Sequence record: PX068456.1
Source of the DNA: a phage
Strand: one strand, 5' to 3'
Length of the DNA stretch: 64,000 bases
Positions 384 through 60,889 of this stretch are shown here, piece after piece. Numbering within the stretch: position 1 is the stretch's first letter; every line of letters begins with the position of its first letter. Below the pieces are notes generated by a model. It did no database searches, was not told the origin of the DNA, and saw only the letters and a program-made list of their open reading frames with translations. The position numbers were made by a program, and so were the translations under genes.

Positions 384-1361
384 ATGCAACTGGGTTTCCC
401 AATTATTGATGTGGTTGTTTTAGTGGGTATTTTAGTCTTGTCGATTTGTATTGATTTCTTTGGACACAGGGAAAACAAAGAAATTTCATTTAAATCTGCA
501 ATTGGCTGGTCAATTTTCTGGATTGGGGTATCATTAGCCTACTATGGTTTTGTATACTTCCAACACGGTGCTGATTTTGCGAGCTTGTTCTTGAGTGGGT
601 ATGTGTTGGAGAAATCTCTTTCTGTAGATAACTTAGTAGTATTTGTGGCAGTATTCGCAAGTTTTGGTATTAAAAGTACACACTTGCAACACAAGATTCT
701 ACTTTGGGGTATTGCAGGTGCGATTGTCTTCCGAGGTGTGTTTGTAGCAGTAGGTACTTACTTGTTGAGTTTGGGCTGGTATGTTAATATCTTCTTCGGT
801 GCGGTCATCCTTTTCTGTGCAGCTAAAATGGTATTCGCTGGAGATAATGACGCAGAAGTTGATTACTCTAAACACTGGGCTACTCGCATTGTTCGTAAGC
901 TGTTCCCTGTATCTGATCAGATGGATGGTGAGAAGTTCTTCACAATCAAAAATGGTGTTCGTGTAGCAACTCCTGCATTGGTTTGTGTGTTTGTAATGGA
1001 AATGGTTGACGTAATCTTTGCAGTAGACTCTGTTCCAGCAGTAATTGCAGTGACACAAGAACCTCTGCTTGTATTTTCTTCAATGCTGTGTGCAATTTTA
1101 GGTCTACGTGCTCTGTTCTTTGTCCTTAGTGTTGCACTGAAATATTTGGTTCATCTGGAGAAAGCAGTTATCGTAGTCCTGGTATTTGTGGGTGTAAAAC
1201 TGATGTATCACCCGTTTGCAGAAACTCTGCACGCAAAAATGAGTTTCCTGCCAGCACACATTGATCCGACGATCAGTATGTATATTGTGTTAGGTACTCT
1301 TGGGCTGGGTGTTATTGCAAGTTTAATCTTCCCTGAAAAAGAAGACCAGACTGTTGCTTAA
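384..1361 (+). CDS. terC: TerC-family integral membrane protein
   Basis: 325 aa, multiple hydrophobic helices, EKSLSVDNLVVF motif typical of the TerC family; RBS AAAGAGGAG. Confidence 0.65.
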   Translation: MQLGFPIIDVVVLVGILVLSICIDFFGHRENKEISFKSAIGWSIFWIGVSLAYYGFVYFQHGADFASLFLSGYVLEKSLSVDNLVVFVAVFASFGIKSTHLQHKILLWGIAGAIVFRGVFVAVGTYLLSLGWYVNIFFGAVILFCAAKMVFAGDNDAEVDYSKHWATRIVRKLFPVSDQMDGEKFFTIKNGVRVATPALVCVFVMEMVDVIFAVDSVPAVIAVTQEPLLVFSSMLCAILGLRALFFVLSVALKYLVHLEKAVIVVLVFVGVKLMYHPFAETLHAKMSFLPAHIDPTISMYIVLGTLGLGVIASLIFPEKEDQTVA

Positions 1362-3139: not shown

Positions 3140-4243
3140 ATGTCCAGTCCTTTTATCAGTGCCGTAAAAAGCAAACCGTCTGAAATGAGTGTATTCACGG
3201 CAACAACAGAAAAAAGTAAGTCTTTGTTTGCTCCAAGTGCTATGGATGCAAGCCCTGTATATGCCCCTGCTGTTGCACGACCTGTACAAATGCTGCCTCC
3301 AATGTCTCGTGAAGAGATTGAACAAGTTGGTGCTGATGCAGGACTTACTCTTCGTAACCTTAATGCTGAAGTGCTTAAACACCAGCGTTCATCTCAGGGG
3401 GATGAAATGAGTGAACGTTTAACTGCACTTATTAAGCAAGCAAAGCAACTTGATCCTAATTCTATTAAACAATCTAAAGGCTTAGGTAAACTAGTTAAGA
3501 AAGTATTAGGTATGAAAGAAGATTTGTTTGGTGAATTTGACACCATCAATAATCGTATTGAAGGTTTGGTAAAGACACTCCAAACAGACTTGAAAAAAGA
3601 AGAAGATTCTTTACGATATCTGCAACGTTTAGAAGAGGCTATTGCAAAATATGCTCTTAGCTTAAACAGGGATATAGAGCTTCTAACAGCTACTTATGAA
3701 AAAGAAGAAGTTCGCCTTAATACACTACCTGAAAATGAAGTAGAAGAGCGTCAACGTACTCGTGATACTATGGATCTGCTTGAAATTCGTATTGCAGACC
3801 TGAAAGCCTTGCGTTTACTGTGTGTTCAGATGGGGCCACGTGTACAAAGTATGCAGAAAGTATCTGCAAGTTTGATGCGATCAGCCCGTAATATTGTGAA
3901 TAATGTTATTCCTGCTTACTCTGCAAACTTTTCTATGTATATTGAAAGTCTACGCCAGAAGAAAGCAGCCGATACACAGAACAATGTACTGAATGAATTT
4001 AATGCGGCTATTGCAATGGGTAGTGATCTGGCTGCACAAAACCAAATTGAAGCTACGCAACTTGCTAATCGTCAAGTATTGGATATTGAAACATTACGTC
4101 GCGATCAAGAAAACTTAGTTAAAATGTTGGAAGAAACTAACCGAATCAACACTGAAGCCCGTGCTGCTCGTATTGATTACATTCAAGAAGTGCAATCTCT
4201 TGAAGATGGTATGATTCAAACTGTTAAACGTGGTCTACTTTAA
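3140..4243 (+). CDS. coiled-coil protein, possibly TelA-like (toxic anion resistance family)
   Basis: 367 aa, predominantly helical/coiled-coil; assignment rests on size and on the TerC/TerD neighbourhood, not on a verified motif. Confidence 0.4.
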   Translation: MSSPFISAVKSKPSEMSVFTATTEKSKSLFAPSAMDASPVYAPAVARPVQMLPPMSREEIEQVGADAGLTLRNLNAEVLKHQRSSQGDEMSERLTALIKQAKQLDPNSIKQSKGLGKLVKKVLGMKEDLFGEFDTINNRIEGLVKTLQTDLKKEEDSLRYLQRLEEAIAKYALSLNRDIELLTATYEKEEVRLNTLPENEVEERQRTRDTMDLLEIRIADLKALRLLCVQMGPRVQSMQKVSASLMRSARNIVNNVIPAYSANFSMYIESLRQKKAADTQNNVLNEFNAAIAMGSDLAAQNQIEATQLANRQVLDIETLRRDQENLVKMLEETNRINTEARAARIDYIQEVQSLEDGMIQTVKRGLL

Positions 4244-5489: not shown

Positions 5490-6284
5490 ATGTCCAATAA
5501 AATCAGTCTTAAAAAACGTCAAGAAACTCTTACTGTATCTCTGCGTAAGAAAAAGATTAACGATGTTGTTCTTCGTGTCGGTAGCGCCTTAGATATTTCG
5601 GGTAGTATGTGTGAGCTGTATCGTGATGGCACTGTTAGTGATTTTGTAGGTAAACTGCTGCCGTTTGGTATGAAGTTTGATGACAATGCACAGATTGACA
5701 TGTGGGCTTTCAATAGTTCTTCTTTTGAACTGCCTCCTGCAACGGCTGATGTGTATGATGATTATGTCGGCTCTTGCATGTCTAATGTTTGCATCAATGG
5801 TGGTACTGCTTATGCTCCAGTAATGCAGGAGATCTATGATACATACTTCGGTAGTGTACCTATGAAAAATATTACACGCGAAGTCGTTGAGTATGAAGAA
5901 GTCCCAGCTAAGGGTTTCCTTGCTAAACTAACTGGTAAAAAAGAACTTGTAGAAGTAACACGTACTGTTGTAGAACAGGTTGTAGATACTGATGCACAAG
6001 TTGATCGTACTCCTGCAATGATTTTCTTCCAAACTGACGGGGAAAACATGGATACTTCAGCAGTACGTAGCTTACTGAACAAACACCGCAATACGCCTGT
6101 TTACTGGTTTATGGTTGGTGTAGGTAATGCAAACTTTAAATTCCTGAAAGACTTGGCAAAAGAGTACGATAATGTTGATTTTATCGGTATTGCAGATTTG
6201 TCCTTGTCTGATGAAGAACTTTACGATAAATTGTTATCTGAAGAGTTTGGTGAGTGGGTTAAAAAATTCGGAGCAAAAGCGTAA
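5490..6284 (+). CDS. von Willebrand factor A (vWA) domain protein with TerD-like N-terminal segment
   Basis: N-terminus ISLKK..TLTVSL parallels the TerD N-terminus; VVLRVGSALDISGSM looks like a MIDAS D-x-S-x-S motif. Confidence 0.5.
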   Translation: MSNKISLKKRQETLTVSLRKKKINDVVLRVGSALDISGSMCELYRDGTVSDFVGKLLPFGMKFDDNAQIDMWAFNSSSFELPPATADVYDDYVGSCMSNVCINGGTAYAPVMQEIYDTYFGSVPMKNITREVVEYEEVPAKGFLAKLTGKKELVEVTRTVVEQVVDTDAQVDRTPAMIFFQTDGENMDTSAVRSLLNKHRNTPVYWFMVGVGNANFKFLKDLAKEYDNVDFIGIADLSLSDEELYDKLLSEEFGEWVKKFGAKA

Positions 6285-6292
6285 AAAAAACG

Positions 6293-6320
6293 CTTGACTT
6301 TGTAGAAAAGATTAGTAAAA
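6293..6320 (+). promoter_or_regulatory. sigma70-like promoter candidate (TTGACT, 16 nt spacer, TAAAAT)
   Basis: read directly upstream of the TerD-like gene. Confidence 0.4.
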
Positions 6321-6358
6321 TAGACAACGTAAATTAACAACAAAGGAGATAATAAATT

Positions 6359-6955
6359 ATGACTCAGAAAATTTCCCTGAAAAAAGGTTCTAGCGAAAAA
6401 GTTTCTCTGAAAAAGATCGCACCAGCACTGAAACGCATTCGTCTGGAATTCTCTTGGAAATCTAACGAAAAACTGGATCTGGATGTTAGTGCTCTGATTT
6501 GCCGACACAATGCATCTGGTCTGCCGGAACTGTTGTCTCCTCGTCACCTGGTGTGCTACGCACAGAAATTTGATCCTGAACGTTCTACTTTTGCAGGTGA
6601 AGATGTTCGTGATGGTGTAGGACAGATGGAGCAGATTGATGTTACACTGGATAATATCTCTGCTGAAGCACAGGAAATTGCATTCGTAATTACTATTGAT
6701 GACGAAACGGGTAAGAAACGCCTTGGTCACGCTACCGAAGGTTTCCTTAAAATCTTCGATGATGAACGTAATGTTGAACTGCTGGACTTTGACTTCTTGG
6801 CTCCAGAACTTGCAGGTAACACCATTTGCCACGTTGCCTCCCTGGTGCGAGAAGATAGCGAATGGAAACTGAAAGCATATGGTGTAGGTAAAGCTGGGCT
6901 TGACATTTACGATGTAGTTAAAGCGTTTGGCGCTGGCGAAGATTGGTTCGAGTAA
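6359..6955 (+). CDS. terD: TerD-domain stress protein
   Basis: 198 aa; N-terminal ISLKKG..VSLKK and overall size typical of TerD/TerE/TerZ; strongly host-like codon usage (CTG, CGT). Confidence 0.65.
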   Translation: MTQKISLKKGSSEKVSLKKIAPALKRIRLEFSWKSNEKLDLDVSALICRHNASGLPELLSPRHLVCYAQKFDPERSTFAGEDVRDGVGQMEQIDVTLDNISAEAQEIAFVITIDDETGKKRLGHATEGFLKIFDDERNVELLDFDFLAPELAGNTICHVASLVREDSEWKLKAYGVGKAGLDIYDVVKAFGAGEDWFE

Positions 6956-6974
6956 TACATCAAGTAATAAATCA

Positions 6975-6998
6975 TAGCGCCCTTCGGGGCGCATATTT
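6975..6998 (+). terminator. rho-independent terminator-like hairpin (GCGCCCTTCGGGGCGC)
   Basis: perfect GC stem with TTCG loop after the TerD stop. Confidence 0.5.
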
Positions 6999-7019: not shown

Positions 7020-7622
7020 ATGAGTATTACTTTAGAAGGTCAAAAACTTATTCGTAGCGGCAATTTTCTTGTAGATATTGACAACAATGAAGATTATGCT
7101 TTAGAAGTTAGTGATGTGCTGTTTGATGCTTTGCAGTCTGGTTTCAATTTTGAAGTTTATGAAGTAATCCGTGGAACTAAACTCAGAGAAACCCTTGGAT
7201 CATCTAGTGATGTTTATTCGGCAATCTGGCAATATTTCGGGTTAATGGAGGGTAAGACATATCTTACTGATAGTTATTCTGAAGATGTTGTTTATCTTGA
7301 TATGGAAGAGTTTCGTCGTCTGTTCAAAAGTGAAGAAAATGAAGAAGAGGGTGAACTTTTTGAAGGAATTACTCTCGAAGGTAATGTTGAAATTGTGTAT
7401 AAAGCAGGAAAAACATTCCACTTACGCGAGAACGGTAAAGCAAAAGTTGATTTTGTAAACAAGACAGTGACAACTGAACATAATTATCTTAAAGATGGTC
7501 AACCAGCTTTTGAACGTGTAAAAATTAAATTTAAAGTGTTGTCTGCACTAGTTACGGATCAAGAACGTATTGATTTTGTAGAAGATGGTGTAGTAACTCA
7601 TACAAAGGTTTACAATATCTAA
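7020..7622 (+). CDS. hypothetical protein (200 aa)
   Basis: ORF with AAAGAGGAG RBS. Confidence 0.5.
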   Translation: MSITLEGQKLIRSGNFLVDIDNNEDYALEVSDVLFDALQSGFNFEVYEVIRGTKLRETLGSSSDVYSAIWQYFGLMEGKTYLTDSYSEDVVYLDMEEFRRLFKSEENEEEGELFEGITLEGNVEIVYKAGKTFHLRENGKAKVDFVNKTVTTEHNYLKDGQPAFERVKIKFKVLSALVTDQERIDFVEDGVVTHTKVYNI

Positions 7623-18468: not shown

Positions 18469-19416
18469 ATGCCAGTAATTAATTCTGAAATCGACCGCCG
18501 TACTAAAAAAGAAGCATTCTGGGCTGAAGGTATTGTCGAATATGTCAAACTAGATAAGTTTGATGAAATGAAAGTCTCTTATATTAAGGTTGCAGGTCAG
18601 CCAGATAAGAAAATTGAATCAACTCACAAAGCATCTCTGCTTATTAAAGAGAAAGGTGCTGGTGCTGATGATAAAGGTGTTTGGGTTAGCCTAGGTGAAG
18701 TTAAACTGCACCCAGAACATGAAAATCTGCAAGTTAAAGATGGTGATAAGTGGGTTACTATCGAAAAAGGTGTAGAACTAACTATGGATGTTAAACCTTC
18801 TGAATGGAATGGCAAAACATACTACAACTCCTCTAAAGGTAAAATCACTATTCTTTCAACAGAAGGTGTTCAGCAAGCGCAATCCTCCTCAAAAGGTGGA
18901 AATAAGCCATCTAATAACGACGGTAGCAAGCCTAACTACAAAAAACGTGATACCGTAGGGATTGAAACAGGACACGCTGTAAACGGCGCTCTGGAGCTTC
19001 TACGTGCTGGTGTGAAAGGTGATGCTTTCGACTTGGCTGGTGTGGTACAATCTGCAACTGTTACTCTGAAAGCTGAAATTGCTAAAGATCGTGGCGTTGA
19101 TGTAACTGACTATGATCTTGGTGCTTCAGTTGGACACGCAATTCTTAACGCTTGTCGTGATCATACAGGTAAAACTGTAACGGCAGAAGAGATTATTGAA
19201 GCTGCTCGTGAAGTTCTTGCTTTGTCTGATAAAGTAGCTGCTGCTATCCGTGGAATGTCTACCCCAGTACAAGAAGTTAAGAAAGAAACTAAAAAAGTAG
19301 AGAAGAAAGAGCCAGCACCGAAAGAACCAGAACCTGTTGTTCAAGATTTCGATGATGATATCCCATTTGCTCCTATTGGTTTGCAATATGGTCGAAACTT
19401 CCTGCACTGTTTCTAA
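18469..19416 (+). CDS. single-stranded DNA-binding protein (putative)
   Basis: acidic C-terminal tail DFDDDIPF typical of SSB; position within the replication module. Confidence 0.55.
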   Translation: MPVINSEIDRRTKKEAFWAEGIVEYVKLDKFDEMKVSYIKVAGQPDKKIESTHKASLLIKEKGAGADDKGVWVSLGEVKLHPEHENLQVKDGDKWVTIEKGVELTMDVKPSEWNGKTYYNSSKGKITILSTEGVQQAQSSSKGGNKPSNNDGSKPNYKKRDTVGIETGHAVNGALELLRAGVKGDAFDLAGVVQSATVTLKAEIAKDRGVDVTDYDLGASVGHAILNACRDHTGKTVTAEEIIEAAREVLALSDKVAAAIRGMSTPVQEVKKETKKVEKKEPAPKEPEPVVQDFDDDIPFAPIGLQYGRNFLHCF

Positions 19417-23490: not shown

Positions 23491-25461
23491 TTATGTGCGT
23501 TTAGCAACAATAGCATCCACGTAATCGCCAACACCACAATATGTTAGTTGTAGTATTGTTACTCCGTTAGGATCTGTATTAATATCACTAGAACCAATTA
23601 CTTTGTAAGATGGATCTAAAGTAACAGTACGACCTCCAGTGGCATCTTGGATAAGATAAACTATTGCAGAGAATGGTTTAGGTTTTGTACTATCTTCGAC
23701 ACCAGGCCATGCTTTTATAGTAGCGTTACCAGTAAGATTCAACACATTCATGTTATGTGTTCCTGGAGGTGTCCAGTCACCTGTAACAGAATTGTTGGTA
23801 TATGCTGTAACCTCTATAAAATTAGTTGTTACTTTTGTTGGAACTATATCTTGACCATCTACAGAATTAGTGAGTTCTTCCCATGCCCCATCTTTACGAG
23901 CATAAGTCTTACCATCACTAGGTGCATCTGTGATACTAGGTAGTGTACCTTGAGAAGTCCAGACCGTTGCAGATGTTTTTAAGAACACCTCGCCAGTGGA
24001 GATATTAAAGGCATAATCACCTTGTTTACCATCACTAGAGATTGGATCTGTTGTTTTAACAATCCAAGTTGCACCGTCTGTACCGTTAGTACCAGCGTCA
24101 CCTTTCTCACCTTTTTCACCCTTATCACCTTTCAAACTACCCATATCTACATATTCAGCAGTTTGAGTTTGTTCATTATAGGTGTAAATGTAAAGATGAC
24201 CTGTATCTTCCGTCAGATAAGCATCACCGTAATTGGCTGTAGGAGGAAGCGCACTTGCAGACGCAACGTGTCCTTTTGCAGTGATTGGAGTACCAGCTAA
24301 ACGACCAACATTTGTCCACTCTGTGGCTCCTTGCAACCAGACCCAAAGTTCACTATTGATCAGATAACCATCACCCTCTTCTCCAGTTTGTGGTAGTTCA
24401 GAAGTGTTAGTCAGAATGTCAATAATGGTCAACCCTGCACCAGTTGGCCCCGTCAAGCCTTGTATACCCTGTTCACCTTGATCACCCTTGTCTCCCTTAT
24501 CACCTTTTTCTCCTTTCAGAGAGGCAATATATTCGTCAATAGTACCAACGTTACCAGCATTTAACCAGACTTGATAAGCTGAATCACCAGTGTTACCCTT
24601 ATCTCCTTTGTCGCCTTTATCTCCTTTTGGCCCCACTATAGCACCCATATTAATCCATTCTACACCGTTTGACACGTATAGATATGTACCAACACTCCAT
24701 GCTTGAGATGTGTTTCCATGAGATGCAGAAGGAAGATCTGAAACGGAATTAGCTGCGCCTTGGTAATCAAAACCATTAGCATTGTTACCTGGCACACCTT
24801 GTGGCCCCTCTGGGCCAGGCTCCCCTTTATCACCTTTAATTGAAGCAAGATAGTCTAGTTCTGTACCTTCATTTCCTGCTGCAAGCCATACTTCATAAGC
24901 AGATTTACCTTCTGGCCCCTGTGAGTTTACTTTTCTCCAAGCAGTACCATCCCAAGCATACATATTCTCGCCTACAATCCATGCATCCCCTGCATTGTTT
25001 CCACTTGTAGGTAATTGGTTGGTATTAGATAGTGTCCCTAATAGCTTTAATGGAGCACCTGGATCACCTTTTAAAGAAGCCAACCACTGTGTCTCAGTAC
25101 CTTGGAAACCATTGTCTACGGCAATCTGGTAAGCTGATTTACCAGCTTCTGGGATGGATTCTCTAAGATCTTCAATTTCAGCTTCAATAGCATCTAATTC
25201 TGATTCTATTTGAGCAATGTCATCTGCATTACCCACATTTTTCCAAGCTGTATCTGAAATCCCTCCAGTAGATGTAGGAGTAGAGTTAGCAGGTACAACT
25301 TTAGGTAGAGAACCTTTCCACTGATAGTAGTTACCGTCAGCTTCAAAGAGCAATGCTTCACGAGCATCTCTTAAGGTAAAACCACTTGCAAAACTTCTAC
25401 GCTTTCTATAGCGAGACTCTACCATGTCTGCAATGGCACTATTTGGACGTGTTAAAATCAC
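23491..25461 (-). CDS. tail fiber protein with collagen-like Gly-X-Y repeats
   Basis: GTG start after AAAGGAG; repeated GDKGDKGDKG, GEKGDKGDKGDQGEQGIQGLTGPTG, GDKGEKGEKGDAG tracts. Confidence 0.7.
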   Translation of the reverse strand: MILTRPNSAIADMVESRYRKRRSFASGFTLRDAREALLFEADGNYYQWKGSLPKVVPANSTPTSTGGISDTAWKNVGNADDIAQIESELDAIEAEIEDLRESIPEAGKSAYQIAVDNGFQGTETQWLASLKGDPGAPLKLLGTLSNTNQLPTSGNNAGDAWIVGENMYAWDGTAWRKVNSQGPEGKSAYEVWLAAGNEGTELDYLASIKGDKGEPGPEGPQGVPGNNANGFDYQGAANSVSDLPSASHGNTSQAWSVGTYLYVSNGVEWINMGAIVGPKGDKGDKGDKGNTGDSAYQVWLNAGNVGTIDEYIASLKGEKGDKGDKGDQGEQGIQGLTGPTGAGLTIIDILTNTSELPQTGEEGDGYLINSELWVWLQGATEWTNVGRLAGTPITAKGHVASASALPPTANYGDAYLTEDTGHLYIYTYNEQTQTAEYVDMGSLKGDKGEKGEKGDAGTNGTDGATWIVKTTDPISSDGKQGDYAFNISTGEVFLKTSATVWTSQGTLPSITDAPSDGKTYARKDGAWEELTNSVDGQDIVPTKVTTNFIEVTAYTNNSVTGDWTPPGTHNMNVLNLTGNATIKAWPGVEDSTKPKPFSAIVYLIQDATGGRTVTLDPSYKVIGSSDINTDPNGVTILQLTYCGVGDYVDAIVAKRT

Positions 25462-25501: not shown

Positions 25502-27916
25502 TTAAGCATTATTGACAGTAACAAAAGTAACAGGGTTCAGAGCTTTAATTTGTGTATTCTCTGCTGTAGGTGTTACAATTGGATCTGCAATATCTATTGT
25601 GTACAAACTATTTGTCACATATGTAGCACGTGCTATAGTTGTCACAAGATCGCCGCCATTTGCACCTGCACCTGGAATAACAATCTTAGTACCTGCTGCT
25701 TTAGCGTAGCCATTACTAGCCCAGTTTAAAGCATTAGACTGTAGATAGGTTTGACCTGTAACAGTTGCTTTTATTTTCTCGTTGTCACTAAAGAAAGCAC
25801 CACCTACTGTAACAACATGTTTTTTACCGCTGGCACAATGAATAACTGTTCCAGTAGGGAAGTCACGCCCACCTGGGAATTCATCATAATCTGTAAAATA
25901 TTGTTCAGAAATAGTGGTTAAAACTGGCCCACGATGACCTGTACCATCAACAGCAGTTGGAACACCAAAGTTATTTCCAACCTGATCGCAACGATCCGTG
26001 TAGATTTTAGCAAAGGAAACTGTTGTTTCATCTCCGCTAAGTGCTGTACATCCTACCCACTTCATATATGTGAATTGGCTGCGAGCATAGAAACCGCCAC
26101 CACTTCCTTCTCCGCTTCCGTGTTGACCAATAAAGTCAATACTACGGCAACGAATATTATTAAAAGTAGAGCTAGATGGTAGCCCACGCCATTTAAAATC
26201 ATTACAATTGATGTTACTAACAATTGTAGAGTTTTCCCAGGCGTCTGATCCAGCCGTTGCAATCTCAATCGAAGATTCTGGAATATCCAAATTCTTAATT
26301 GTAAAGTTAATTGGTGGCCCCGCATATCTTCCACCGTTAACACCCCAGTCAATAAAGACCATGCGTGTTGAAACAGACGGATCATTAAGCAGATAACCAG
26401 TTAAACCATCAACTTCAAAGTCTTGGCATCCGTATAATGCAACACCACAAGTAGTTAAACCTGTACCTGTTGAAACTGCTGTGTTAGGATAAACTTCGTT
26501 ATCACGTATTGTGAAGTTTTTACCCATTTCAACGTGTAGACATTGACGGCAATTGTAAACTCTATTTCCAACGATACTGAAGTTACGTACATATTGTGAA
26601 TCAGGAGCATCAACACCATATGGGCCACTACCTGCTACACCAATACCAATACCCCAGTTTGCACCTTGTCCAGAAGCATCTACGTTAGCAATGTGGTTAT
26701 TCTCGATGATCAAACCTTCAGTGTAGTGTCTTTGAACTACGTTAAGTTCAATAGCATCACCTTTAATATCGTGAATATAGTTGTTAGAGTAACGCCCATA
26801 GGTCATTACTTCTCCAGTACCTTGTTGCAGGATCGCATATTTACAACCATACATTTCGTTGTAACTGAAGTCCAACGTACCTTCACTTGTCATTGCTTGC
26901 ATTAAGAATGCTGCTGTAGATGTTGCGTTGGAGAAGATATTACGATAGAATCGGCAATCACCACCTAACATCTTAACATAACATTTTTCAAAGCGAACGT
27001 TTTCAATCCAACAGGACACAGTAGAAATCATTGTTCCACCGTTACCAGTGAATGTACCACCATACCAACGAATACCAGACATAGCAATTGAGCTTGTGAA
27101 TCTATAATTCTTATCTGCTCGTACTTGAATGTTATTCGTGTTAGCGAAAGTAATGGTTTTTAGAATTGCTTGAGTATCATCGGTAACTCCATCACCAATT
27201 GCACCAAACTGCTCAGGCGTTACAAAGTATTGAGCTTGTAACAGGTTGCCTCCAGATGGAAGACCAACCATTGCTGCACCAGTGGTAGATGACAAAAGGT
27301 TTTTCTCTACGTAAGAAGTAGAGGCTGTTGTTTTACCAATAAAAGCAAACAATTTGTTAGGTAGACCAGTAGACGGATCTAAACCTAATGGTTCTGCCAG
27401 AATAATTTTACTATCTTTGATAGTAAATGCTTCACCCTGAATCTGAATTACACCGTTAATGGTGACAATAGCATTATCAAAGATATAAGGAGGACTGATT
27501 TCTGTTTCATATCCTGTAGCACCTTTAAAATACCAAGGATACACATCTGAAGCTAACTGTTCAGTTTTAAGAGCATACAGAGTCCAGTTACTGTCTCCTA
27601 CAGGTGTACCCTGCATAGGTACAGGGTTCGCAGTAGTGGCAGATGGAGCATAGTAGTACCCACTCAAGATACCGTTTTCAAAATAACGTAACTGGTTAAA
27701 TACAGTTTCAGTTGATCCTGCTGACCAAGCAACAGGACTCTTAAAGAAGAAGTTATCAACAAGTGCTTTACGCAGTGTAGGTATTAAACCTGTTTCGGTT
27801 TCTACAGTTGCTGTAGCATCCCCGTTAATAACATCATGCATCTGGTTAGACGAGAATATAACCAGATCAACACCTTGTTCTAGTGTCGTAGCAGGATATG
27901 TTGGAAAATTCGCCAT
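25502..27916 (-). CDS. tailspike protein with pectate-lyase-like parallel beta-helix (candidate depolymerase)
   Basis: 804 aa; QFGAIGDGVTDDTQAI motif typical of beta-helix glycosidases/lyases; repetitive N/G-rich strands. Confidence 0.6.
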   Translation of the reverse strand: MANFPTYPATTLEQGVDLVIFSSNQMHDVINGDATATVETETGLIPTLRKALVDNFFFKSPVAWSAGSTETVFNQLRYFENGILSGYYYAPSATTANPVPMQGTPVGDSNWTLYALKTEQLASDVYPWYFKGATGYETEISPPYIFDNAIVTINGVIQIQGEAFTIKDSKIILAEPLGLDPSTGLPNKLFAFIGKTTASTSYVEKNLLSSTTGAAMVGLPSGGNLLQAQYFVTPEQFGAIGDGVTDDTQAILKTITFANTNNIQVRADKNYRFTSSIAMSGIRWYGGTFTGNGGTMISTVSCWIENVRFEKCYVKMLGGDCRFYRNIFSNATSTAAFLMQAMTSEGTLDFSYNEMYGCKYAILQQGTGEVMTYGRYSNNYIHDIKGDAIELNVVQRHYTEGLIIENNHIANVDASGQGANWGIGIGVAGSGPYGVDAPDSQYVRNFSIVGNRVYNCRQCLHVEMGKNFTIRDNEVYPNTAVSTGTGLTTCGVALYGCQDFEVDGLTGYLLNDPSVSTRMVFIDWGVNGGRYAGPPINFTIKNLDIPESSIEIATAGSDAWENSTIVSNINCNDFKWRGLPSSSTFNNIRCRSIDFIGQHGSGEGSGGGFYARSQFTYMKWVGCTALSGDETTVSFAKIYTDRCDQVGNNFGVPTAVDGTGHRGPVLTTISEQYFTDYDEFPGGRDFPTGTVIHCASGKKHVVTVGGAFFSDNEKIKATVTGQTYLQSNALNWASNGYAKAAGTKIVIPGAGANGGDLVTTIARATYVTNSLYTIDIADPIVTPTAENTQIKALNPVTFVTVNNA

Positions 27917-28257
27917 TAATTTTTGTCCTTACTTTGTGTGCGCTTCGTAATCTCCTCTAGCATTAATTGAACAGGAGCATTTTTTAAATCCATTATTTTT
28001 TCAATCTTCTGTTCTAAGGCAGTATTATTTGCCATTAATGTAGAGTTGATCTGGTTAAGCATTTGAGCAAGTTCTGCTTTGGTAGCATAAGTGGATTCAA
28101 CAAACACCAACTTCTTTTCTAGTTCACGGTATTTGTCTTCCATTTTATCCAAATCACTTGCTATATCATCTATCTTCTGTTTGAAGACCACCCAGATTAC
28201 ACCAATAAGAGGGATAATCGCCTCTTTAGCGATATCCCATACTTCTGTTAGCTCCAT
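27916..28257 (-). CDS. small membrane-anchored coiled-coil protein
   Basis: one N-terminal hydrophobic helix (IIPLIGVIWVVF) followed by coiled coil. Confidence 0.4.
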   Translation of the reverse strand: MELTEVWDIAKEAIIPLIGVIWVVFKQKIDDIASDLDKMEDKYRELEKKLVFVESTYATKAELAQMLNQINSTLMANNTALEQKIEKIMDLKNAPVQLMLEEITKRTQSKDKN

Positions 28258-30456: not shown

Positions 30457-31944
30457 TTAGACTCCGTACTCGTAGGAAATATTATCAAGGTCAAAGGATG
30501 GTACAACATTGTACGCTGGAGTGATATCTCCCTCATTATATTTACTGTCATCCTCAGTATTAAGTTTAACATAAACACGGAGAGAAGTCAAGCGTCCGAA
30601 CGCAAGTGCAGAATAAATTACACCTTTTATCTGGTCGTTAGTTACTGTTGACCCTAATTCAAAATAAGCCTGTAAGTTTGCAAGAGCAGAAACAATATTT
30701 TCTCTTTCTGTTGTACTTAACACACTACCATTACCAGTTTGATATACCAGTTTAAGTGAGTATTCCGCATTATCACCAGGAGAAAAACGAATTACTTCTT
30801 GACCACCATCTTCTGTTACGATAGTAATTGCTGTCGTACCATAAGTTAATGTGTTAATAGGCTTAGTATTATAAATAACCTGTGCAACTTCTTCTGCTGT
30901 ACCACCGTACACAATAGTTTGGAATGTCATAGCTGGAGCATGTTCCTGATCGTGTAGTGTAGGGTTATCATAAATCTTAACCTTTGTCACACCATCTGTC
31001 AGTAATAGAGCTTTAACAATAGCAGCACGAGTAGCAGCATTAGCTTCATCCATATTATCATTGAAACGAGAACGGAATTCTGCATCTGTTTCAACATCTG
31101 TACCTGGAGAGAACGGATAGAAGTTACCTGTATCTAAAAAGCCTGTAAACGTTGAAGAAATACCTGTAATACTTTCTGTACCTACTGGATTATAACCAAC
31201 ATCTGAACACGTAACTGGAATTTCACTCCATTTTGTACCAATTGCAATGGATGCATAAAATTTCACTGGTGTTACTAGACCTATTGGGTTAACATTATCT
31301 TCTGGATTATAACCCATATAAACATTACTAGCATCATTCCATACTAAAGCACGATCTGTTGTTGATACGTTAGCTTTAATGAAATTCGTGAGATCTACAA
31401 TAAAGTTTGTATTGCTAGGACTTAGTGTTTTACTGTTAAGACCACCATCAATAGCACTTTGAATGTAGAAAGTAATAGAAGTTTCACCAGAAGCTGTTGC
31501 GTTTGCTTTAGAAATGGTATATGCTCCAATCTTAGCATTCAACATTGTTGGTGCACTGACATAATATGTCAAATCGTTATCGGCATTAAAATAAACATCT
31601 GTGCTTAGTTCATAAGTCCAAGCTGCCTTATTGTTAGATTTAACATAAGCATAACCACTACCAGCAGAAGCAGCTTTACGATAAAAACCTCTTTTAGAGA
31701 AGATTTCATCAAGGTAAATACCTTCTGCACCATCTAAGGTTTGGGTATTGTAAACACCTTGCATACCTTCCCAAAGGGTGTAATCTGTATATGCAATAAT
31801 ACGAAACAGTTGACCAAAGACAGTATCTTCAGATGTAGCTGTATCTGCACCGAAAGTGTTTTTCAATGCTGTCATATAATTATTTAAAATATCATCAAAC
31901 GTTGGAATGACAAAACCAGCATCTGTTAAACCATAATCTGCCAT
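30457..31944 (-). CDS. baseplate component (putative)
   Basis: 495 aa; position only. Confidence 0.35.
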   Translation of the reverse strand: MADYGLTDAGFVIPTFDDILNNYMTALKNTFGADTATSEDTVFGQLFRIIAYTDYTLWEGMQGVYNTQTLDGAEGIYLDEIFSKRGFYRKAASAGSGYAYVKSNNKAAWTYELSTDVYFNADNDLTYYVSAPTMLNAKIGAYTISKANATASGETSITFYIQSAIDGGLNSKTLSPSNTNFIVDLTNFIKANVSTTDRALVWNDASNVYMGYNPEDNVNPIGLVTPVKFYASIAIGTKWSEIPVTCSDVGYNPVGTESITGISSTFTGFLDTGNFYPFSPGTDVETDAEFRSRFNDNMDEANAATRAAIVKALLLTDGVTKVKIYDNPTLHDQEHAPAMTFQTIVYGGTAEEVAQVIYNTKPINTLTYGTTAITIVTEDGGQEVIRFSPGDNAEYSLKLVYQTGNGSVLSTTERENIVSALANLQAYFELGSTVTNDQIKGVIYSALAFGRLTSLRVYVKLNTEDDSKYNEGDITPAYNVVPSFDLDNISYEYGV

Positions 31945-32189
31945 TAGTTATCCTCCTTATCAGGGGCAGGTGATCTGCCCCAACGTAAATCTATTAAATT
32001 CTTCATTAGTCTGGATGGTGTGATCATAAAAACAAAAGCCCAGCCCATCCATTCAGGAATTTCTTTATCAATTCCCAAATAAATAAACATACTGGACATA
32101 ACAATCATACCAATAGCATTCCAAACTTTAGTAGAGCTGACTTTATTATCAGGATATGTACAAAACATTCCGATTAAAAACTTTCTCAT
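31944..32189 (-). CDS. small two-helix membrane protein (holin-like candidate)
   Basis: 81 aa; two hydrophobic segments (NAIGMIVMSSMFIYLGI, WMGWAFVFMI), charged C-terminus. Confidence 0.4.
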   Translation of the reverse strand: MRKFLIGMFCTYPDNKVSSTKVWNAIGMIVMSSMFIYLGIDKEIPEWMGWAFVFMITPSRLMKNLIDLRWGRSPAPDKEDN

Positions 32190-32494
32190 AGTGCGTTCTC
32201 ATTACTTTTTAAATCACGAGATACAGCTAATTCCCCAAGGTCTACAGAACCCGCTGAATGCACAAGTACAGCAGCACTAAGACTAATGGCAGTAGTACCT
32301 GGGGCAATATCAGCAGGTAGGGAATACGCCCTTTGCGTCTCCTTATCATAGATAACCTTATACCCACCCAAATCCACACCAACTGAGAAGTAAATAACCT
32401 CATTCTGCTTAACGCCAAAATGCCGAGCAATGGCTTGCTTATTGGTTAATATTCCAGTGGAACCTTTACCGCCTTGGGAGAATAATTCGTTCAT
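32186..32494 (-). CDS. hypothetical protein
   Basis: ORF. Confidence 0.4.
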   Translation of the reverse strand: MNELFSQGGKGSTGILTNKQAIARHFGVKQNEVIYFSVGVDLGGYKVIYDKETQRAYSLPADIAPGTTAISLSAAVLVHSAGSVDLGELAVSRDLKSNENAL

Positions 32495-32518
32495 AAGTAC
32501 CTCTTTGTTTTTCTAGGA

Positions 32519-32538
32519 AACCCCTCCGAAGAGGGGTT
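32519..32538 (-). terminator. terminator-like hairpin (AACCCCTCCGAAGAGGGGTT)
   Basis: GC stem. Confidence 0.4.
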
Positions 32539-32543
32539 AGTGA

Positions 32544-34616
32544 TTAAATAACATCAATAAGAGACATCCTTATAGCTTTCTGTGTAAGACCTGTTGTCCA
32601 TCCTACTTCTGTTGCGTCTGCCGAGCCTATTTCCCAAACACGCATCTCTGCTATTTCTATGGTATCAGTAGCATTAGTCACTGGGCCTACCGTTATCGTG
32701 AACGATGTGGCCGTGTCGTCGATAATAAAGTTTATTATAGAAGTATTCCATCCTGACGCGGTAGACTGGTAAGTCACACTACCGTTTACTTTTACTGTTA
32801 TCGGCCCCGCGAAAGTAACGGCGAGAGCAAATCTTGTTCTTGAGTTAGGTTTAGAAAGCGATATTGACGCTTTATCATAATTGCCGCCAGTTGAGCATTT
32901 TAAAGACGATCCACTACGCACTGCCGCAGTAGACGTGCTCCATACTCCGTTTATATATGTCCAGCTATAAGGTGCATTTCCCGTGGTATTGAGGGTGTTA
33001 AATGTTCCAGCTAAACCAAGTTTATCTGTATTCTGAAATGCAGAATACATTTTGAAAAGGTCGTCATCATACGCCGTTGTTTTTGCGATAGTGCCTTGGA
33101 ACATGACAGACTCTGTTAGACGACCTGTGGTTGTTGTTCCGAGTTGTGCATCAAGCACCGAGTCACTGCATATAATGCCGGAAATATTCGCTCGCAGTAC
33201 CCTTGCTCTATTTAAGGTGCTGAGCACTGGTGTGTAACCACCTGACCCGGCTTCGTGAGCCTCAAATCCTTTAATATTTAACTTATAAATACTTCCTGTG
33301 AAATTATCTGCGCGGAAGTAAGCGCCACGAATAAGTTCCCCATAAGCATTAGATATGTTCAGTGAGTAAACTTCCGTAGACCCTTCCAAGTGGAACATGC
33401 TGTCCTGCATATTTTCAGCGACAGGGTTCTCGATGATAATATCTCTCCCTGGTCCTACATACATAAAACCTTTATACTGAAACCCGTGTATATTGCGTAA
33501 ACGCATTACAAAAGTCCCCCAGTACGAACTACCTCGCTGGATAGCGTACCCATAACCAGTGTTGGCATTCTTACCAGTTAATCCATAAGCCTCAAAGTCG
33601 TCAACATCTATGAGTACGTTACCGCCTTGCGGTCTAAAACCACCCTGTTTAAATCCAAAGCTACGACACCCTTTCATCCTGAAGTGGGTGGTATTGACAA
33701 CGTTTACCGCAACATCTGATGTATCAGCAGCGGCTGCTGATGCTTCGGTGCTATATGTGCGTCCGAACTGTATATTTTCCAGGGTAATTGAACGGGTAAA
33801 CCCTGTGCTATCAGGGTTGCCGTCGTCCACTCCGATATTGAATACTCTGTCGTCGTCAGTCCAGATAGTCCCTCCAGCATTCTCATCATATACTGCTGGT
33901 CTGTCGCAATATATGCGAATCTTATCGCATGTATTTTTACTCAATTCAGTAGTGGACAGTTTAAAAGTCATCCATGAAGGTAAAAGAATATTTCCAATAT
34001 TATTGGCTTTAGCATATGCCAAAGCCGCGTTAAATTCAGTATCTGCGAGATAATCTTTATTAGCATTTGCCGGTATGAAATCTGCAAGGGATAGCACATC
34101 TCTTAATGAAAATTTACTATTCCTTAATGGTAAAACTGATGAAGTCAGATCTGCTCTTAATGATGCATCACCAACACTAACCCAAGCACCTAGAGCAATC
34201 CCACCAGTAGCGTCTGGTGTTGAGTCAGAAGCAACCGTTTTCGGCAGATCACCACCCCACGTATAGCACTGCCCACCAGCGATATGCCAAACAGCATCAG
34301 TATTATTATTTAATGTAGCACCCTCCTCAAAGCTACCATCAACAAGTGTTAACCCCGCTTCAGCAAGACTACGACACCACTGTTCACGATCATTAAGAAG
34401 ATTGTTATTCAACTCTTCCTGAACAGTATTACCATTTGAGGATTGTATTAAATCTGCTCCATCTGTATCTTTCAACTGGGTGGCTAAAACCACCCCAGTG
34501 TCAGTAAGAAAGTTAGAAACTGTGCTTTTAACAGTTTTATCAGGTTGATCTAAAACCAGGTAATCTGAACCATTAACTTTTGATGTTTCCGGTAAATTAG
34601 TAATTGTAGTTGACAT
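32544..34616 (-). CDS. tailspike/tail fiber protein (second beta-helix-like RBP)
   Basis: 690 aa; shares an N-terminal W.G.LPK.V...STP..TGGI...AW motif with the collagen-like fiber. Confidence 0.5.
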   Translation of the reverse strand: MSTTITNLPETSKVNGSDYLVLDQPDKTVKSTVSNFLTDTGVVLATQLKDTDGADLIQSSNGNTVQEELNNNLLNDREQWCRSLAEAGLTLVDGSFEEGATLNNNTDAVWHIAGGQCYTWGGDLPKTVASDSTPDATGGIALGAWVSVGDASLRADLTSSVLPLRNSKFSLRDVLSLADFIPANANKDYLADTEFNAALAYAKANNIGNILLPSWMTFKLSTTELSKNTCDKIRIYCDRPAVYDENAGGTIWTDDDRVFNIGVDDGNPDSTGFTRSITLENIQFGRTYSTEASAAAADTSDVAVNVVNTTHFRMKGCRSFGFKQGGFRPQGGNVLIDVDDFEAYGLTGKNANTGYGYAIQRGSSYWGTFVMRLRNIHGFQYKGFMYVGPGRDIIIENPVAENMQDSMFHLEGSTEVYSLNISNAYGELIRGAYFRADNFTGSIYKLNIKGFEAHEAGSGGYTPVLSTLNRARVLRANISGIICSDSVLDAQLGTTTTGRLTESVMFQGTIAKTTAYDDDLFKMYSAFQNTDKLGLAGTFNTLNTTGNAPYSWTYINGVWSTSTAAVRSGSSLKCSTGGNYDKASISLSKPNSRTRFALAVTFAGPITVKVNGSVTYQSTASGWNTSIINFIIDDTATSFTITVGPVTNATDTIEIAEMRVWEIGSADATEVGWTTGLTQKAIRMSLIDVI

Positions 34617-34624
34617 TTTTACTC

Positions 34625-36784
34625 CTATATATAAAATTTTTGTGTTGTTACTAAATCTTCTCCAGATTTAGTGGCTAATGTAATTCCACTTAGGGTGGCA
34701 ATCTCAACATTTACCTGTTTAAGAGTGATATCTTGCAAGTAGCAATTCAAAGGCACATTACCCATATAAAACACTTGGGATTTTGAATTAAGAACAGTTA
34801 TTGAATCATGCATTATTTGTGGGTAAGCCCATATGTATTGATATAAACCAACAAACTTCTGGTCATTCAATACAATATTGCCTATAATCATTTTCCACAA
34901 ATATGTTCTATAGTTTGATTCAGGATCAAAGCCATATAATGGTGCTAGAGTTGCATCTGGAACAAACCCTGCAAGATAATGTATCTTATCGTAACTAAAA
35001 CCTAATTGCTCATTAGGTATTGTGATAGCGTCGAAAGATCTTTCCATCTTACCTTCCAACAACCAATCATAACATTCTGAACAATAAAAGTCAAAGTTTT
35101 CTGGGATATAATAATCTTTAGGGAAGTTAACAAACTCCATCATACCATTACCCAAAATGGATGGCACAAATGGTAACAATGTAACTTTAGCTCCAGGATA
35201 TGCTAATCTGGTATCTGTTGCAAATTTAGCAACACGCAGTCCTAATGTTTTAGAAAGGAATGCATAATATTCATCATATGGCGTACCAGTTTTATAATTT
35301 TTAACTGTACCAACATCTTGTGCATACAATCCAGTTTCATTATTAAATGCAACTTTGGTTGTATAATCATAAATACACGGTAGATTGGTAGCTGTGTTAT
35401 ACCACCACCACGGTTCACCAACCTGAATAATAACCGGAAGATCATTAGCAGCGGATATAGAAGCTATCTTATTTATTACACCTTGTAAATAATTCATCCC
35501 TTCATCAATTGAAGGAGATAAAACATAACTTGGTGGCTCATAACCTGTAGCAGCAAGATCATCATTCCAAGTATGTTGTACCCATTCTACAGGACACACT
35601 GTACTCATAAGTTCAAAACTTAAGGAGTTCATTACTGTGTAGCCCATAGCTTTTGCATTAGCGTGGAAATTATCAAACCAGGCTTCTGTTGCTGGGTTTA
35701 AATATTCTGTTCTATTCAAAGCCCATTTATTAGATCCAGCATCCCAACTAAATTGATAATAGTGTGACATACCATTATAATGGTTAATCATATCTCTATA
35801 ACCTAATCTATAGGTGTTAGAAATAACTCGCTCTGGGGTTAGGTTATACATATCATCATAAGATGTACACATTCTTATGGTGTGTGCTGGAACATTTAAA
35901 TTACCCATATTCATCATACTATAACCCGTATCAGGTTCCAGTATGGTAAACTTAAAGGAAAGATCCTCATTGTCTACAGGAATAATATCTTCAATTTCTT
36001 GATACCTTGTGGAGATCAAGGAGAAGAACATATTATCTATCTGTGTAGTGTCAACAACAATATCATTTTCTGGCCCAGATTTTAAATTTGAGAAATCTAA
36101 TTTTATTGTTGCTGTTTTACCATCCTCTGAAACTTCTTCTGCATAAAAGTTTAGAGATACATAATGGACTGTTTCATCCTTCAGTGTCACTGTTAAGGAT
36201 GGCAGTAATTTTTCTTCTTTTAACCCAGGAACACCTTGACTAAGTTCCATTTTAAACCAAAGTTTTTCTTTACTTAAGTCAGAATGTTCTTGGTAGCCTA
36301 ATCCTTTGTGATCATATTTATCGTAAGTTGACCAAATAATCCCAGCAAGACCAGCCACTGTCCTATTAACCATTCTTGCTGTGAAAGAATCACCATTAGA
36401 GATAATAGAACAACTCTCTGTTGCTTGAGAATCTATTGTCCAAAACTTAGGATCAAACATTCTAGACTTCACAACAGGCCAAGTTAGCGGGGTTGTATTC
36501 GATTGATTAGTCGTAATAACACAACGAATTTCTTCATTGATCATCATGTTATTTTGACTTATGCTAGTAATCTCAAGAGTAAAATAAAGATCTAAAGAGT
36601 TTGCCGGACGTTCATATACATCAACCACTACAGTAGCAGAATCTGCATCAGAAGGGAACGTTACTGTTCCCTGTTTAGCTACATAATCTCTACCAGCGAC
36701 CGCCGTTCCATCGACGGTCTTATAGCTGAATGAACTGGCATTTACTCTCGTATTTCGAGTTACAGTAAAAATAGCCTGTTTCAT
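34625..36784 (-). CDS. large virion structural protein
   Basis: 719 aa; position. Confidence 0.45.
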   Translation of the reverse strand: MKQAIFTVTRNTRVNASSFSYKTVDGTAVAGRDYVAKQGTVTFPSDADSATVVVDVYERPANSLDLYFTLEITSISQNNMMINEEIRCVITTNQSNTTPLTWPVVKSRMFDPKFWTIDSQATESCSIISNGDSFTARMVNRTVAGLAGIIWSTYDKYDHKGLGYQEHSDLSKEKLWFKMELSQGVPGLKEEKLLPSLTVTLKDETVHYVSLNFYAEEVSEDGKTATIKLDFSNLKSGPENDIVVDTTQIDNMFFSLISTRYQEIEDIIPVDNEDLSFKFTILEPDTGYSMMNMGNLNVPAHTIRMCTSYDDMYNLTPERVISNTYRLGYRDMINHYNGMSHYYQFSWDAGSNKWALNRTEYLNPATEAWFDNFHANAKAMGYTVMNSLSFELMSTVCPVEWVQHTWNDDLAATGYEPPSYVLSPSIDEGMNYLQGVINKIASISAANDLPVIIQVGEPWWWYNTATNLPCIYDYTTKVAFNNETGLYAQDVGTVKNYKTGTPYDEYYAFLSKTLGLRVAKFATDTRLAYPGAKVTLLPFVPSILGNGMMEFVNFPKDYYIPENFDFYCSECYDWLLEGKMERSFDAITIPNEQLGFSYDKIHYLAGFVPDATLAPLYGFDPESNYRTYLWKMIIGNIVLNDQKFVGLYQYIWAYPQIMHDSITVLNSKSQVFYMGNVPLNCYLQDITLKQVNVEIATLSGITLATKSGEDLVTTQKFYI

Positions 36785-47135: not shown

Positions 47136-48542
47136 TTATGAAGATACAGTAGAGCTATTGGAATTCTGGCTATTTGCAGTGCGGTTCGTCAGAACGTTTA
47201 CCTGCACTTTAACATAGTGGAAGAATCCAGCATATACGTATTCAATAACCATACCATCAACCAAACGTGCATTGATTTGAGCATCAGTCATATCTGCACG
47301 AGATGGGATATAGATAGTAGGTTTAAGGCTTACCAGAAGTCCTGTTTCCTCTGAAGTTACTACCTCATTGGCAATAGAACCATTGTTAATACCTACTTGG
47401 ATTGGGTTTGCAGTAACAGCCTGACGAATCAAAGCAAGACCAGCAGAAGTTGCTCTAACACCACTACCAAGCATAGATTGCTGTTTAAATAGAGCGAACA
47501 GAGATTCTTCTACGCGAGCTTTGAACCACAGAGCGTGTACCACATAGTCAACATAGAAACCACTAACCATGAAACCATCACGGTAGAACAGAACACCGTG
47601 TTCTTTACGGTAAATATTACCATTCTGTTGAACGATAAAGTTTTCTGCTGTCTGACCAAGTTTTTCAATCTCGATACCAACAAGGGTTTTACCATGCAGG
47701 GTAGTAGTACCTGGTGTTGCAGAGCAGATAGAACCAACTACAGCAGCTTCTGGGAACACTGTATCAGCGTTAGTCATCCACAATGCCATACAAGTGTTAT
47801 TGTAGCCCATATCACCTAAGCGTTCTAGAATGTTATCTTCTTGTTTAGTTAGAACACCTGGTTGCGAGGTAGAGAAGAAATACACTTTATCGTGCTCTTC
47901 TACATAACCTGCTAGATCGATAATATCTTGTTCTGCGTGAGAATCAGATAGTAACCAGAACCAACTGTTTTCATAATCTGCAATTTTAGCAATATCTTCT
48001 AAGATATCATTTGCATATTCTACTTTAGTTGTGAATCCTGAACTATCCATAGTAGCGTATTTACCTGCAACTGGGGTTACAGTGATAACACTACCATCGT
48101 TTGACACAGTGAAGAATTCTTTATACACCATGTCTGCGTTGATCATTTCTGTTAAACCAACAACAATCTCTTGAGCAGTTGCAGTATCATCGGCAACAAA
48201 CTTGAAGTCCTTGCTTTTTGAATTTGCTTTAATAGTGATAACGTAAGTTGCACTATCTTCAACTACTGGAGTTAGAGTTGTTTTAGAAACATCACGCTTA
48301 CCGACGATAACTTGTTCTGGTGCGAACAGACCGTCAAATAGTAGTTTTGCCATTTTATAAGCTGGATCGGCAGTGCCAAAACCTGCTTGCAGAAGTGCGT
48401 CTGAAGAAGTGAAATAATCTACAAGATTGCCAGTAACGTTATGCCCTGTAAGAATTAGAGGGATATCAAACTGTGTTTCACTAATTGAAGTAGCACCGTA
48501 GGTAAGGGTTACGGAAACTACCTTATCACGAAAAGTTGCCAT
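47136..48542 (-). CDS. tail sheath protein (putative)
   Basis: 468 aa; gene order sheath-tube-chaperones-tape measure. Confidence 0.5.
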   Translation of the reverse strand: MATFRDKVVSVTLTYGATSISETQFDIPLILTGHNVTGNLVDYFTSSDALLQAGFGTADPAYKMAKLLFDGLFAPEQVIVGKRDVSKTTLTPVVEDSATYVITIKANSKSKDFKFVADDTATAQEIVVGLTEMINADMVYKEFFTVSNDGSVITVTPVAGKYATMDSSGFTTKVEYANDILEDIAKIADYENSWFWLLSDSHAEQDIIDLAGYVEEHDKVYFFSTSQPGVLTKQEDNILERLGDMGYNNTCMALWMTNADTVFPEAAVVGSICSATPGTTTLHGKTLVGIEIEKLGQTAENFIVQQNGNIYRKEHGVLFYRDGFMVSGFYVDYVVHALWFKARVEESLFALFKQQSMLGSGVRATSAGLALIRQAVTANPIQVGINNGSIANEVVTSEETGLLVSLKPTIYIPSRADMTDAQINARLVDGMVIEYVYAGFFHYVKVQVNVLTNRTANSQNSNSSTVSS

Positions 48543-60557: not shown

Positions 60558-60633
60558 TGGTCAGTGCGGCAGGACTCGAACCTGCGACCCGAAGCATCCA
60601 AAGCTCCCACGCTACCAACTGCGCTACGCACTG
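60558..60633 (-). tRNA. tRNA-Pro(UGG): tRNA-Pro (anticodon TGG)
   Basis: acceptor CAGTGCG/CGCACTG, D arm GCGC-AGTTGGTA-GCGT, anticodon loop TTTGGAT, T arm GCAGG-TTCGAGT-CCTGC. Confidence 0.7.
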
Positions 60634-60640
60634 TAAATAC

Positions 60641-60715
60641 TGGCTGGAGATCTAGGAATCGAACCTAGTCATCACGACTTCAAAGGCCGTTGCCTTCCCA
60701 CTAGGCTAATCTCCA
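60641..60715 (-). tRNA. tRNA-Gln(UUG): tRNA-Gln (anticodon TTG)
   Basis: acceptor TGGAGAT/ATCTCCA, anticodon stem ACGGC/GTCGT loop CTTTGAA, T arm CTAGG-TTCGATT-CCTAG. Confidence 0.7.
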
Positions 60716-60814
60716 ATAAAACTAAAAATCACTTAAAAAGAACCGCTAGAGTTTGAAGGAGAAAACCATGAGCGAAAAGAGAAATTTTCTCTAGCGATTC
60801 CATTTAAATAATCT

Positions 60815-60889
60815 TGGAGCGAGTAACAGGACTTGAACCTGCACCTGGAGGGTGGAAACCTCATATGCTACCATTAACACTATACCCGC
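60815..60889 (-). tRNA. tRNA-Gly(UCC): tRNA-Gly (anticodon TCC)
   Basis: acceptor GCGGGTA/TACTCGC, anticodon loop TTTCCAC, T arm GCAGG-TTCAAGT-CCTGT. Confidence 0.65.

Follow-up and report, generated by a model that had tools for sequence, protein, structure and literature searches.

The stretch of phage DNA analysed here (the window, 64 kb long, GC 38.1%) belongs to a phage with a genome of ~148 kb. Escherichia phage EC.P2 shares 99.8% identity with it, and many further Justusliebigvirus (phi92-like, Stephanstirmvirinae) myophages, all isolated on E. coli, share 97–99%. On its plus strand, an ATG-to-TAA open reading frame at 6359–6955 encodes a TerD-domain protein (Pfam TerD, E = 5e-28). The ortholog in phage phi92, gp172, is 99.5% identical and is annotated there as a 'putative stress protein'. 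This annotation is already known, as are the presence of Ter modules in phages and the codon-bias phenomenon with which we deal below. A TerD that is 99.5% identical to that of the window also occurs in five 'Campylobacter phage' records (e.g. MG065645.1; host listed as Campylobacter jejuni), and one 'Pseudomonas phage' and one 'Serratia phage' record also fall in the group. The host labels of these records may be wrong or may reflect contamination.

In the window, terD is linked to genes for a TerC-family membrane protein (384–1361, plus strand), a TelA-family protein (3140–4243, plus strand) and a vWA protein resembling TerF (5490–6284, plus strand), the last being its upstream neighbour. 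In relatives, HAD, PRTase and macro-domain genes lie directly upstream of the region that the window covers. The TerD protein scores 98.2 bits against Pfam PF02342 (cutoff 25.3) over profile positions 3–178 of 187, and it matches the PDB TerD sequences 2KXT (Klebsiella; E = 8e-15) and 3IBZ (E = 3e-13). An AlphaFold model (mean pLDDT 77.9, pTM 0.79) retrieved 3IBZ, 2KXT and 2QZ7 in Foldseek with probability 1.0 and TM scores of 0.66–0.76, and a TerD beta-sandwich fold is predicted for the phage protein. The canonical acidic Ca2+-binding loop of TerD, reportedly described by NMR for the Klebsiella protein, is said to read GDNxTGEGDGDDE or GDN(R/L)TG(E/A)GDGDDE. The phage segment aligned to that loop is GEDVRDGVGQMEQ, in which only three of the six acidic positions remain; the DLD motif is kept. 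The variant, G(E/D/A)DVRDGxGxMEx, is conserved across the phage clade, and loop residues 68–87 have a pLDDT below 50 in the model. Given this replaced loop, Ca2+ binding by the phage TerD may be altered.

The intergenic gaps on either side of terD (GC content 0.24 and 0.38) are among the few larger ones. A sigma-70-like promoter candidate, TTGACT-16-TAAAAT (6294–6321, plus strand; 10/12 consensus positions), lies in the 74-nt gap 5' of the gene, and a Shine-Dalgarno sequence, AAAGGAGA (6343–6350, plus strand), stands 8 nt 5' of the ATG with a duplex energy of -8.7 kcal/mol. On the 3' side, a GC-rich hairpin with a UUCG loop, GCGCCC-TTCG-GGGCGC (6977–6992, plus strand; fold z = -2.97), has a weak T-tract and is a candidate terminator or 3' mRNA stabiliser. 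From this arrangement terD looks like its own small transcription unit. Promoter-like sites were not enriched over shuffled sequence (29 found vs 27.3 expected), nor were hits in the terminator scan, and consensus matches are therefore used as weak context only. The Shine-Dalgarno duplex energy of terD is ordinary (rank 28 of 75), and neither this energy nor the folding of the start region sets the three codon-adapted genes described below apart from the rest. A different GC hairpin is found 3' of terD in the related phage phAPEC8. That phage also has a perfect sigma-70 consensus, TTGACA-16-TATAAT (phAPEC8 6648–6676), inside a small ORF ~325 nt upstream of terD; two additional small ORFs separate its vWA gene from terD, and it lacks the gene at 7020–7622 of the window. 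The latter, which follows terD on its 3' side, was considered as a TerD paralog and rejected (BLASTP E = 0.86, no Pfam match).

A minus-strand ORF of 257 aa (6221–6994), longer than terD itself, spans the whole gene in phase with its codons. It stays open because TerD is encoded without TTA, CTA and TCA codons; phAPEC8 has it only in interrupted form and Klebsiella phage 05F01 not at all, and we reject it as a gene and regard it as a by-product. There is a practical side to this, as longest-ORF gene calling picks the antisense frame in place of terD here, and callers of this type can miscall the gene.

Codon adaptation was scored for 75 curated genes of the window, using codon adaptation index (CAI) weights derived from 31 E. 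coli MG1655 genes (ribosomal-protein, EF-Tu, EF-G and RpoA genes; 5,222 codons). The top three were the HK97-type major capsid protein (51158–52159, minus strand; Pfam Phage_cap_E, E = 9e-40; phi92 gp124) at 0.661, the trimeric cement/decoration protein (52181–52573, minus strand; PHROG head-decoration family; phi92 gp123) at 0.645, and TerD at 0.622, followed by a fourth gene at 0.540. When the protein sequences were held fixed and synonymous codons were drawn anew according to the combined usage of the remaining genes, the expected CAI was ~0.37–0.38 (0.382 for TerD), and the observed values corresponded to z scores of 9.8, 5.9 and 6.5 for capsid, cement and TerD. The preliminary description had singled out these three genes as codon-usage islands, and their coordinates, identities and CAI ranks of 1–3 bear this out; the per-gene scoring of CAI that it had suggested gave a clear deviation. 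Across the complete EC.P2 genome, the same three genes take ranks 1–3 of 239 ORFs (mean CAI 0.367, SD 0.083), with TerD ~3.1 SD above the mean. A principal component analysis of relative synonymous codon usage, which makes no reference to a host, gave the same picture: PC1 (26% of the variance, SD 1.98) loads positively on CGT and CTG and negatively on AGA and TTA, and its highest scores belong to capsid (4.45), cement (4.09) and TerD (4.03). Wright's Nc did not single TerD out, which indicates that its bias is directional, towards host codons, while its strength as such is not extreme. Strong use of host-preferred codons is thus confined to three of the ~240 genes, and TerD is the only non-structural gene among them.

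Among the structural genes, the order of CAI follows the expected copy number (capsid > cement > scaffold, sheath, tube), which supports CAI as a proxy for abundance in this phage. A second tier holds the putative scaffold protein (phi92 gp122; 52592–53707, minus strand; CAI 0.530), the tail sheath (phi92 gp130; 47136–48542, minus strand; CAI 0.498, z = 5.2) and the vWA gene next to terD (CAI 0.515, z = 4.1). As this neighbour is raised, the earlier statement that TerD is unlike its neighbours is only partly true. The TerC gene has a CAI of 0.435 (z = 2.8) and the TelA gene one of 0.382. When scoring was based on EC.P2, the vWA and TerC genes reached z scores of 4.6 and 3.5, and a gene outside the window and upstream of the Ter module (EC.P2 129046–130206), encoding a 385-aa protein annotated in phage KMB37 as 'ATPase or Zn metalloprotease', had a CAI of 0.50 (z = 5.6). 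The raised values of these three genes indicate that genes of the Ter region as a group lean to host codons. Rank 4 in the window is held by a plus-strand gene at 18469–19416 (315 aa, phrog_4477; CAI 0.540, and 0.610 in phAPEC8), located beside replication genes. Its product has no Pfam match and no PDB sequence match, and is a candidate for a second abundant non-structural protein. At the other end, the lowest CAI of the window (0.171, z = -3.8; GC3 unusual at 0.41) belongs to a 66-aa minus-strand ORF at 58922–59122 that overlaps 59058–59378 and may not be a real gene.

CTG accounts for 15 of the 21 Leu codons of TerD, 17 of 23 in the capsid gene and 11 of 15 in the cement gene (71–74%), compared with 193 of 1489 elsewhere (13%), an enrichment with p = 2e-9 to 7e-11. 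The three genes are also enriched in CAG and avoid TTA, CTA, ACA, CAA, AGA and ATA; in TerD, the codons TTA, CTA, TCA, ATA, AGA and CAA are missing entirely. The richness in CTG, CGT, GGT and AAA that had been described for these genes therefore needs to be narrowed: CTG stands, but CGT, GGT and AAA are majority codons throughout the phage (45%, 61% and 75%), and none of them reaches significance by itself in TerD. The suggestion of a host with CTG-biased codon usage agrees with what we found, as the related phages infect E. coli, a host whose ribosomal-protein genes use CTG for 80% of their Leu codons. Local GC richness was likewise confirmed. TerD (0.442), capsid (0.458) and cement (0.448) have the highest GC content among real genes, compared with 0.381 for the window, and fall in the 96.7th–99.7th percentile of same-length segments. 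In TerD, codon positions 1 (0.61 vs 0.50) and 3 (0.36 vs 0.26) contribute equally to the GC excess, while GC at position 2 is not raised. The excess at position 1 results from amino-acid content together with CTG.

Large phages, including T4-like phages, carry tRNA sets that complement host-rare codons. The phage described here is similar in that its tRNAs match the A-ending codons of its bulk genes: a cluster of 16 tRNA genes (59836–62712, minus strand) includes several with U34 anticodons cognate to TTA, CTA, CAA, ACA, CCA, GGA and TCA. Unlike the bulk genes, TerD, capsid and cement opt out of the phage tRNAs and use host-optimal codons. The codons read by the phage U34 tRNAs are the very ones that TerD shuns most, occupying 4 of its 65 eligible sites (6%), which is the lowest share of all 75 genes (median 37%). 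With so little use of them, translation of TerD should rely on abundant host tRNAs. Three of the 16 tRNAs have a CAT anticodon, and among these there may be a tRNA-Ile that carries lysidine and reads ATA. This codon has a frequency of 10.5 per 1000 in the bulk of the phage genes but does not occur in TerD, capsid or cement. The equivalent cluster of phAPEC8 has 11 annotated tRNAs, including a tRNA-Arg that is missing from the window.

Other parts of the window, namely the tailspikes at 23.9–25.2 kb and 32.2–34.0 kb and the tRNA cluster, are GC-rich but not codon-adapted. The tailspike regions (32186–34616 and 23491–25461, both on the minus strand) have a GC content of 0.42–0.44, like TerD, with CAI z scores of -4.8 and -1.0. 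Here the window differs even from EC.P2. No single phage record covers more than 43% of 31900–34700, and the matches to it include 54 Salmonella phage records. Judged by such patterns, the tailspike regions look like mosaic, horizontally swapped receptor-binding modules, and the tailspike gene at 32544–34616 (GC-rich, CAI z = -4.8, patchy matches) provides a contrast case of exchanged DNA. The GC-rich islands have three separate causes, which are translational selection, mosaic tailspikes and tRNA genes.

The bias is shared with relatives. In phAPEC8, the CAI is 0.649 for TerD, 0.671 for capsid and 0.652 for cement, and the CAI of orthologs is strongly correlated across the two genera (Spearman 0.85). 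Over 57 ortholog pairs between the window and phAPEC8, dS calculated by the Nei-Gojobori method is mostly 1.2 to >2.5; synonymous sites are near saturation above 1, so that only the ranks of dS are meaningful. TerD (0.96, sixth lowest of 57), capsid (0.79) and cement (0.52) are all among the six lowest, and CAI is negatively correlated with dS (rho -0.35, p = 0.015). Conserved CAI combined with low dS is the signature expected of purifying selection on synonymous sites. In the more distant phage 05F01, an unclassified Klebsiella member of Stephanstirmvirinae, TerD has a CAI of 0.469, which places it in the upper tier and level with the sheath (0.446), with capsid at 0.614 and decoration at 0.506. 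This weaker bias indicates that the extreme adaptation of TerD is confined to the lineages of phi92 and phAPEC8. The ter operon of a Klebsiella plasmid has its highest CAI in terD (0.613) and terE (0.591), compared with 0.35–0.50 for terZ, terA, terB, terC and terF and 0.31–0.50 for all its other genes, which suggests that the TerD component is the abundant one in bacteria too.

Translational selection, driven by a requirement for very large, stoichiometric quantities of TerD, is in our assessment the probable cause of the bias. With CAI as a proxy, codon usage indicates that TerD is probably an abundant protein, and very high expression comparable to that of the capsid protein, as proposed in the preliminary description, is plausible and the best-supported reading. 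For phages like phi92 and phAPEC8, a literature search yielded no data on expression, the proteome or ribosome profiling, and nothing specific on TerD or codon usage. In the mechanism that we propose, terD would be an old member of the phage Ter-like module (TerC, TelA, vWA-TerF-like and TerD, with PRTase/HAD upstream), passed on by vertical descent. Selection would have shifted its synonymous codons to those of abundant E. coli tRNAs (CTG, CAG, CGT and others) and off the A-ending, AGA and ATA codons that are favoured by the AT-rich bulk of the phage and partly served by phage tRNAs, leaving a signature that it shares with no genes other than those of capsid and cement, the most abundant proteins of the virion. 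TerD would then be required in stoichiometric rather than catalytic amounts, be expressed from its own small transcription unit and be translated mainly with host tRNAs, and, as an abundant part of a Ter-type superinfection or stress system, it could bind a ligand or Ca2+ or act beneath the membrane.

Host-like codons could also have been brought along by a recent horizontal transfer of terD from an E. coli host or plasmid, an origin that had been raised earlier as an alternative. The local GC richness of the gene (0.442 vs 0.381) would fit such a donor, and enterobacterial plasmids often carry ter operons (a tblastn search gave matches in 2,246 plasmid records). However, a blastn search with the DNA of terD, distant mode included, found no match in 5,426 complete E. 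coli genomes (20,395 replicon records), the protein is only 30–32% identical to plasmid and bacterial TerD, and the E value of its match to 2KXT is no better than 8e-15. All close homologs (72–99% identity) are on phage-sized contigs of ~150 kb, and the next nearest are ~50% identical. The gene is present in 144 phage records, none of the relatives found lacks it, and it is syntenic in three phage lineages, i.e. Justusliebigvirus, Phapecoctavirus (phAPEC8, 81% identity) and Klebsiella phage 05F01 (48%). Its GC3 of 0.36 differs from the ~0.49 of plasmid and enterobacterial terD, and the truly mosaic tailspikes of this phage are GC-rich yet low in CAI, unlike terD. By these sequence comparisons, terD is not a recent acquisition from the host, and we consider transfer of this type extremely unlikely. 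An artefact of amino-acid composition or regional GC is hardly credible either. The many Gly, Ala, Asp, Glu and Val residues of TerD are reflected in the high GC of its gene at codon position 1 (0.61), but resampling with the protein fixed still leaves it at z = 6.5, and the artefact is excluded by this control. Moreover, GC3s and CAI are weakly related (rho 0.20, p = 0.08), genes of similar GC3 (32544–34616, 27916–28257 and 32186–32494) have a low CAI, and the intergenic DNA on either side of terD is not GC-rich (0.24 and 0.38). The bias is real, conserved and independent of amino-acid content.

Selection at the nucleotide level, apart from translation, might act through an antisense gene at 6221–6994, through mRNA structure or stability, or through the avoidance of motifs. 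The 257-aa antisense ORF does cover all of terD, and the start region of terD is weakly structured (MFE -3.0 vs a median of -6.5). Yet the missing TTA, CTA and TCA codons explain the antisense ORF fully, its reading frame is interrupted in phAPEC8 and has no counterpart in 05F01, and the codons preferred in terD are exactly those of E. coli ribosomal-protein genes; we judge selection of this kind very improbable. The timing of translation, rather than abundance, is another potential cause: if TerD were translated right after infection, before the phage tRNAs build up, codons that depend on these tRNAs would be avoided. The lowest use of phage-U34-tRNA codons among the 75 genes (6% vs a median of 37%), the sigma-70-like promoter 5' of terD and the position of the gene inside a replication/nucleotide-metabolism block are consistent with early translation, as is the higher median CAI of plus-strand genes compared with minus-strand genes of the window (0.424 vs 0.349, p = 0.01). 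In contrast, the putative early small-ORF arm of EC.P2 shows no greater adaptation to the host than the structural block does (p = 0.6), most neighbours of terD in the same block have a CAI of 0.3–0.45, and the late capsid and cement genes share the signature of TerD. Timing may be a contributor, but alone it is insufficient to make TerD an outlier, and as the main explanation it is unlikely.

Translational selection for abundant protein is in line with an earlier report that abundant phage structural proteins use host-preferred codons while the rest of the genome is biased differently (Lucks et al., 2008; PMC2266997). Capsid, cement and, to a lesser extent, scaffold, sheath and tube of the present phage follow this pattern. 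The difference is that the top class here includes TerD, which is not among the components modelled in the cryo-EM structure of the phi92 virion (PMC13450770). Compared with the enterobacterial terZABCDEF operon (tellurite, phage and colicin resistance), the phage system shares the TerD domain and fold, the linkage to TerC, TelA and vWA-TerF, and the presence of TerD (terD and terE on the plasmid) among the most codon-adapted genes. It differs in that the phage TerD is ~31% identical, exists as a single copy instead of 3–5 paralogs, has a variant acidic loop and belongs to a myophage of strictly lytic type. Ter systems have been described in jumbo and related tailed phages, where exclusion of rival phages or stress tolerance was proposed as their role (Iyer et al., 2021; PMC7824862). 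The set found here, i.e. PRTase, HAD, TerC, TelA, TerF-type vWA and TerD, is the same, and an exclusion role could apply. That work deals with gene content rather than with TerD expression or codon adaptation, and the present phage, at ~148 kb, is not a jumbo phage. In the searchable literature, we found no report of TerD standing alone among non-structural genes with capsid-level codon adaptation, nor of the parallel with terD and terE.

The codon signature that TerD shares with the capsid gene, combined with that of terD and terE in the bacterial operon, implies that TerD is needed in bulk. Such a need would argue for a stoichiometric role in binding, buffering or scaffolding over a catalytic or regulatory one, which is a testable prediction. 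A more detailed version is tentative and, in our view, doubtful as it stands. In this version, TerD would reach a capsid-like copy number because it acts stoichiometrically, either by soaking up or buffering Ca2+ or a nucleoside-like signal made by the Ter PRTase/HAD proteins, or as the bulk subunit of a sub-membrane TelA/vWA/TerC assembly that remodels the envelope or excludes superinfecting phages.

Overall, the finding is of modest interest and offers a cheap, testable clue to how TerD acts. The clue bears on the biochemical role of the TerD domain, whose ter operons are widespread on enterobacterial plasmids. If the tentative, more detailed version were true, the same need for dosage would explain why bacteria carry 3–5 TerD paralogs with terD and terE as the best codon-adapted among them, and phi92-like phages would provide a tractable single-copy system for the study of TerD function.
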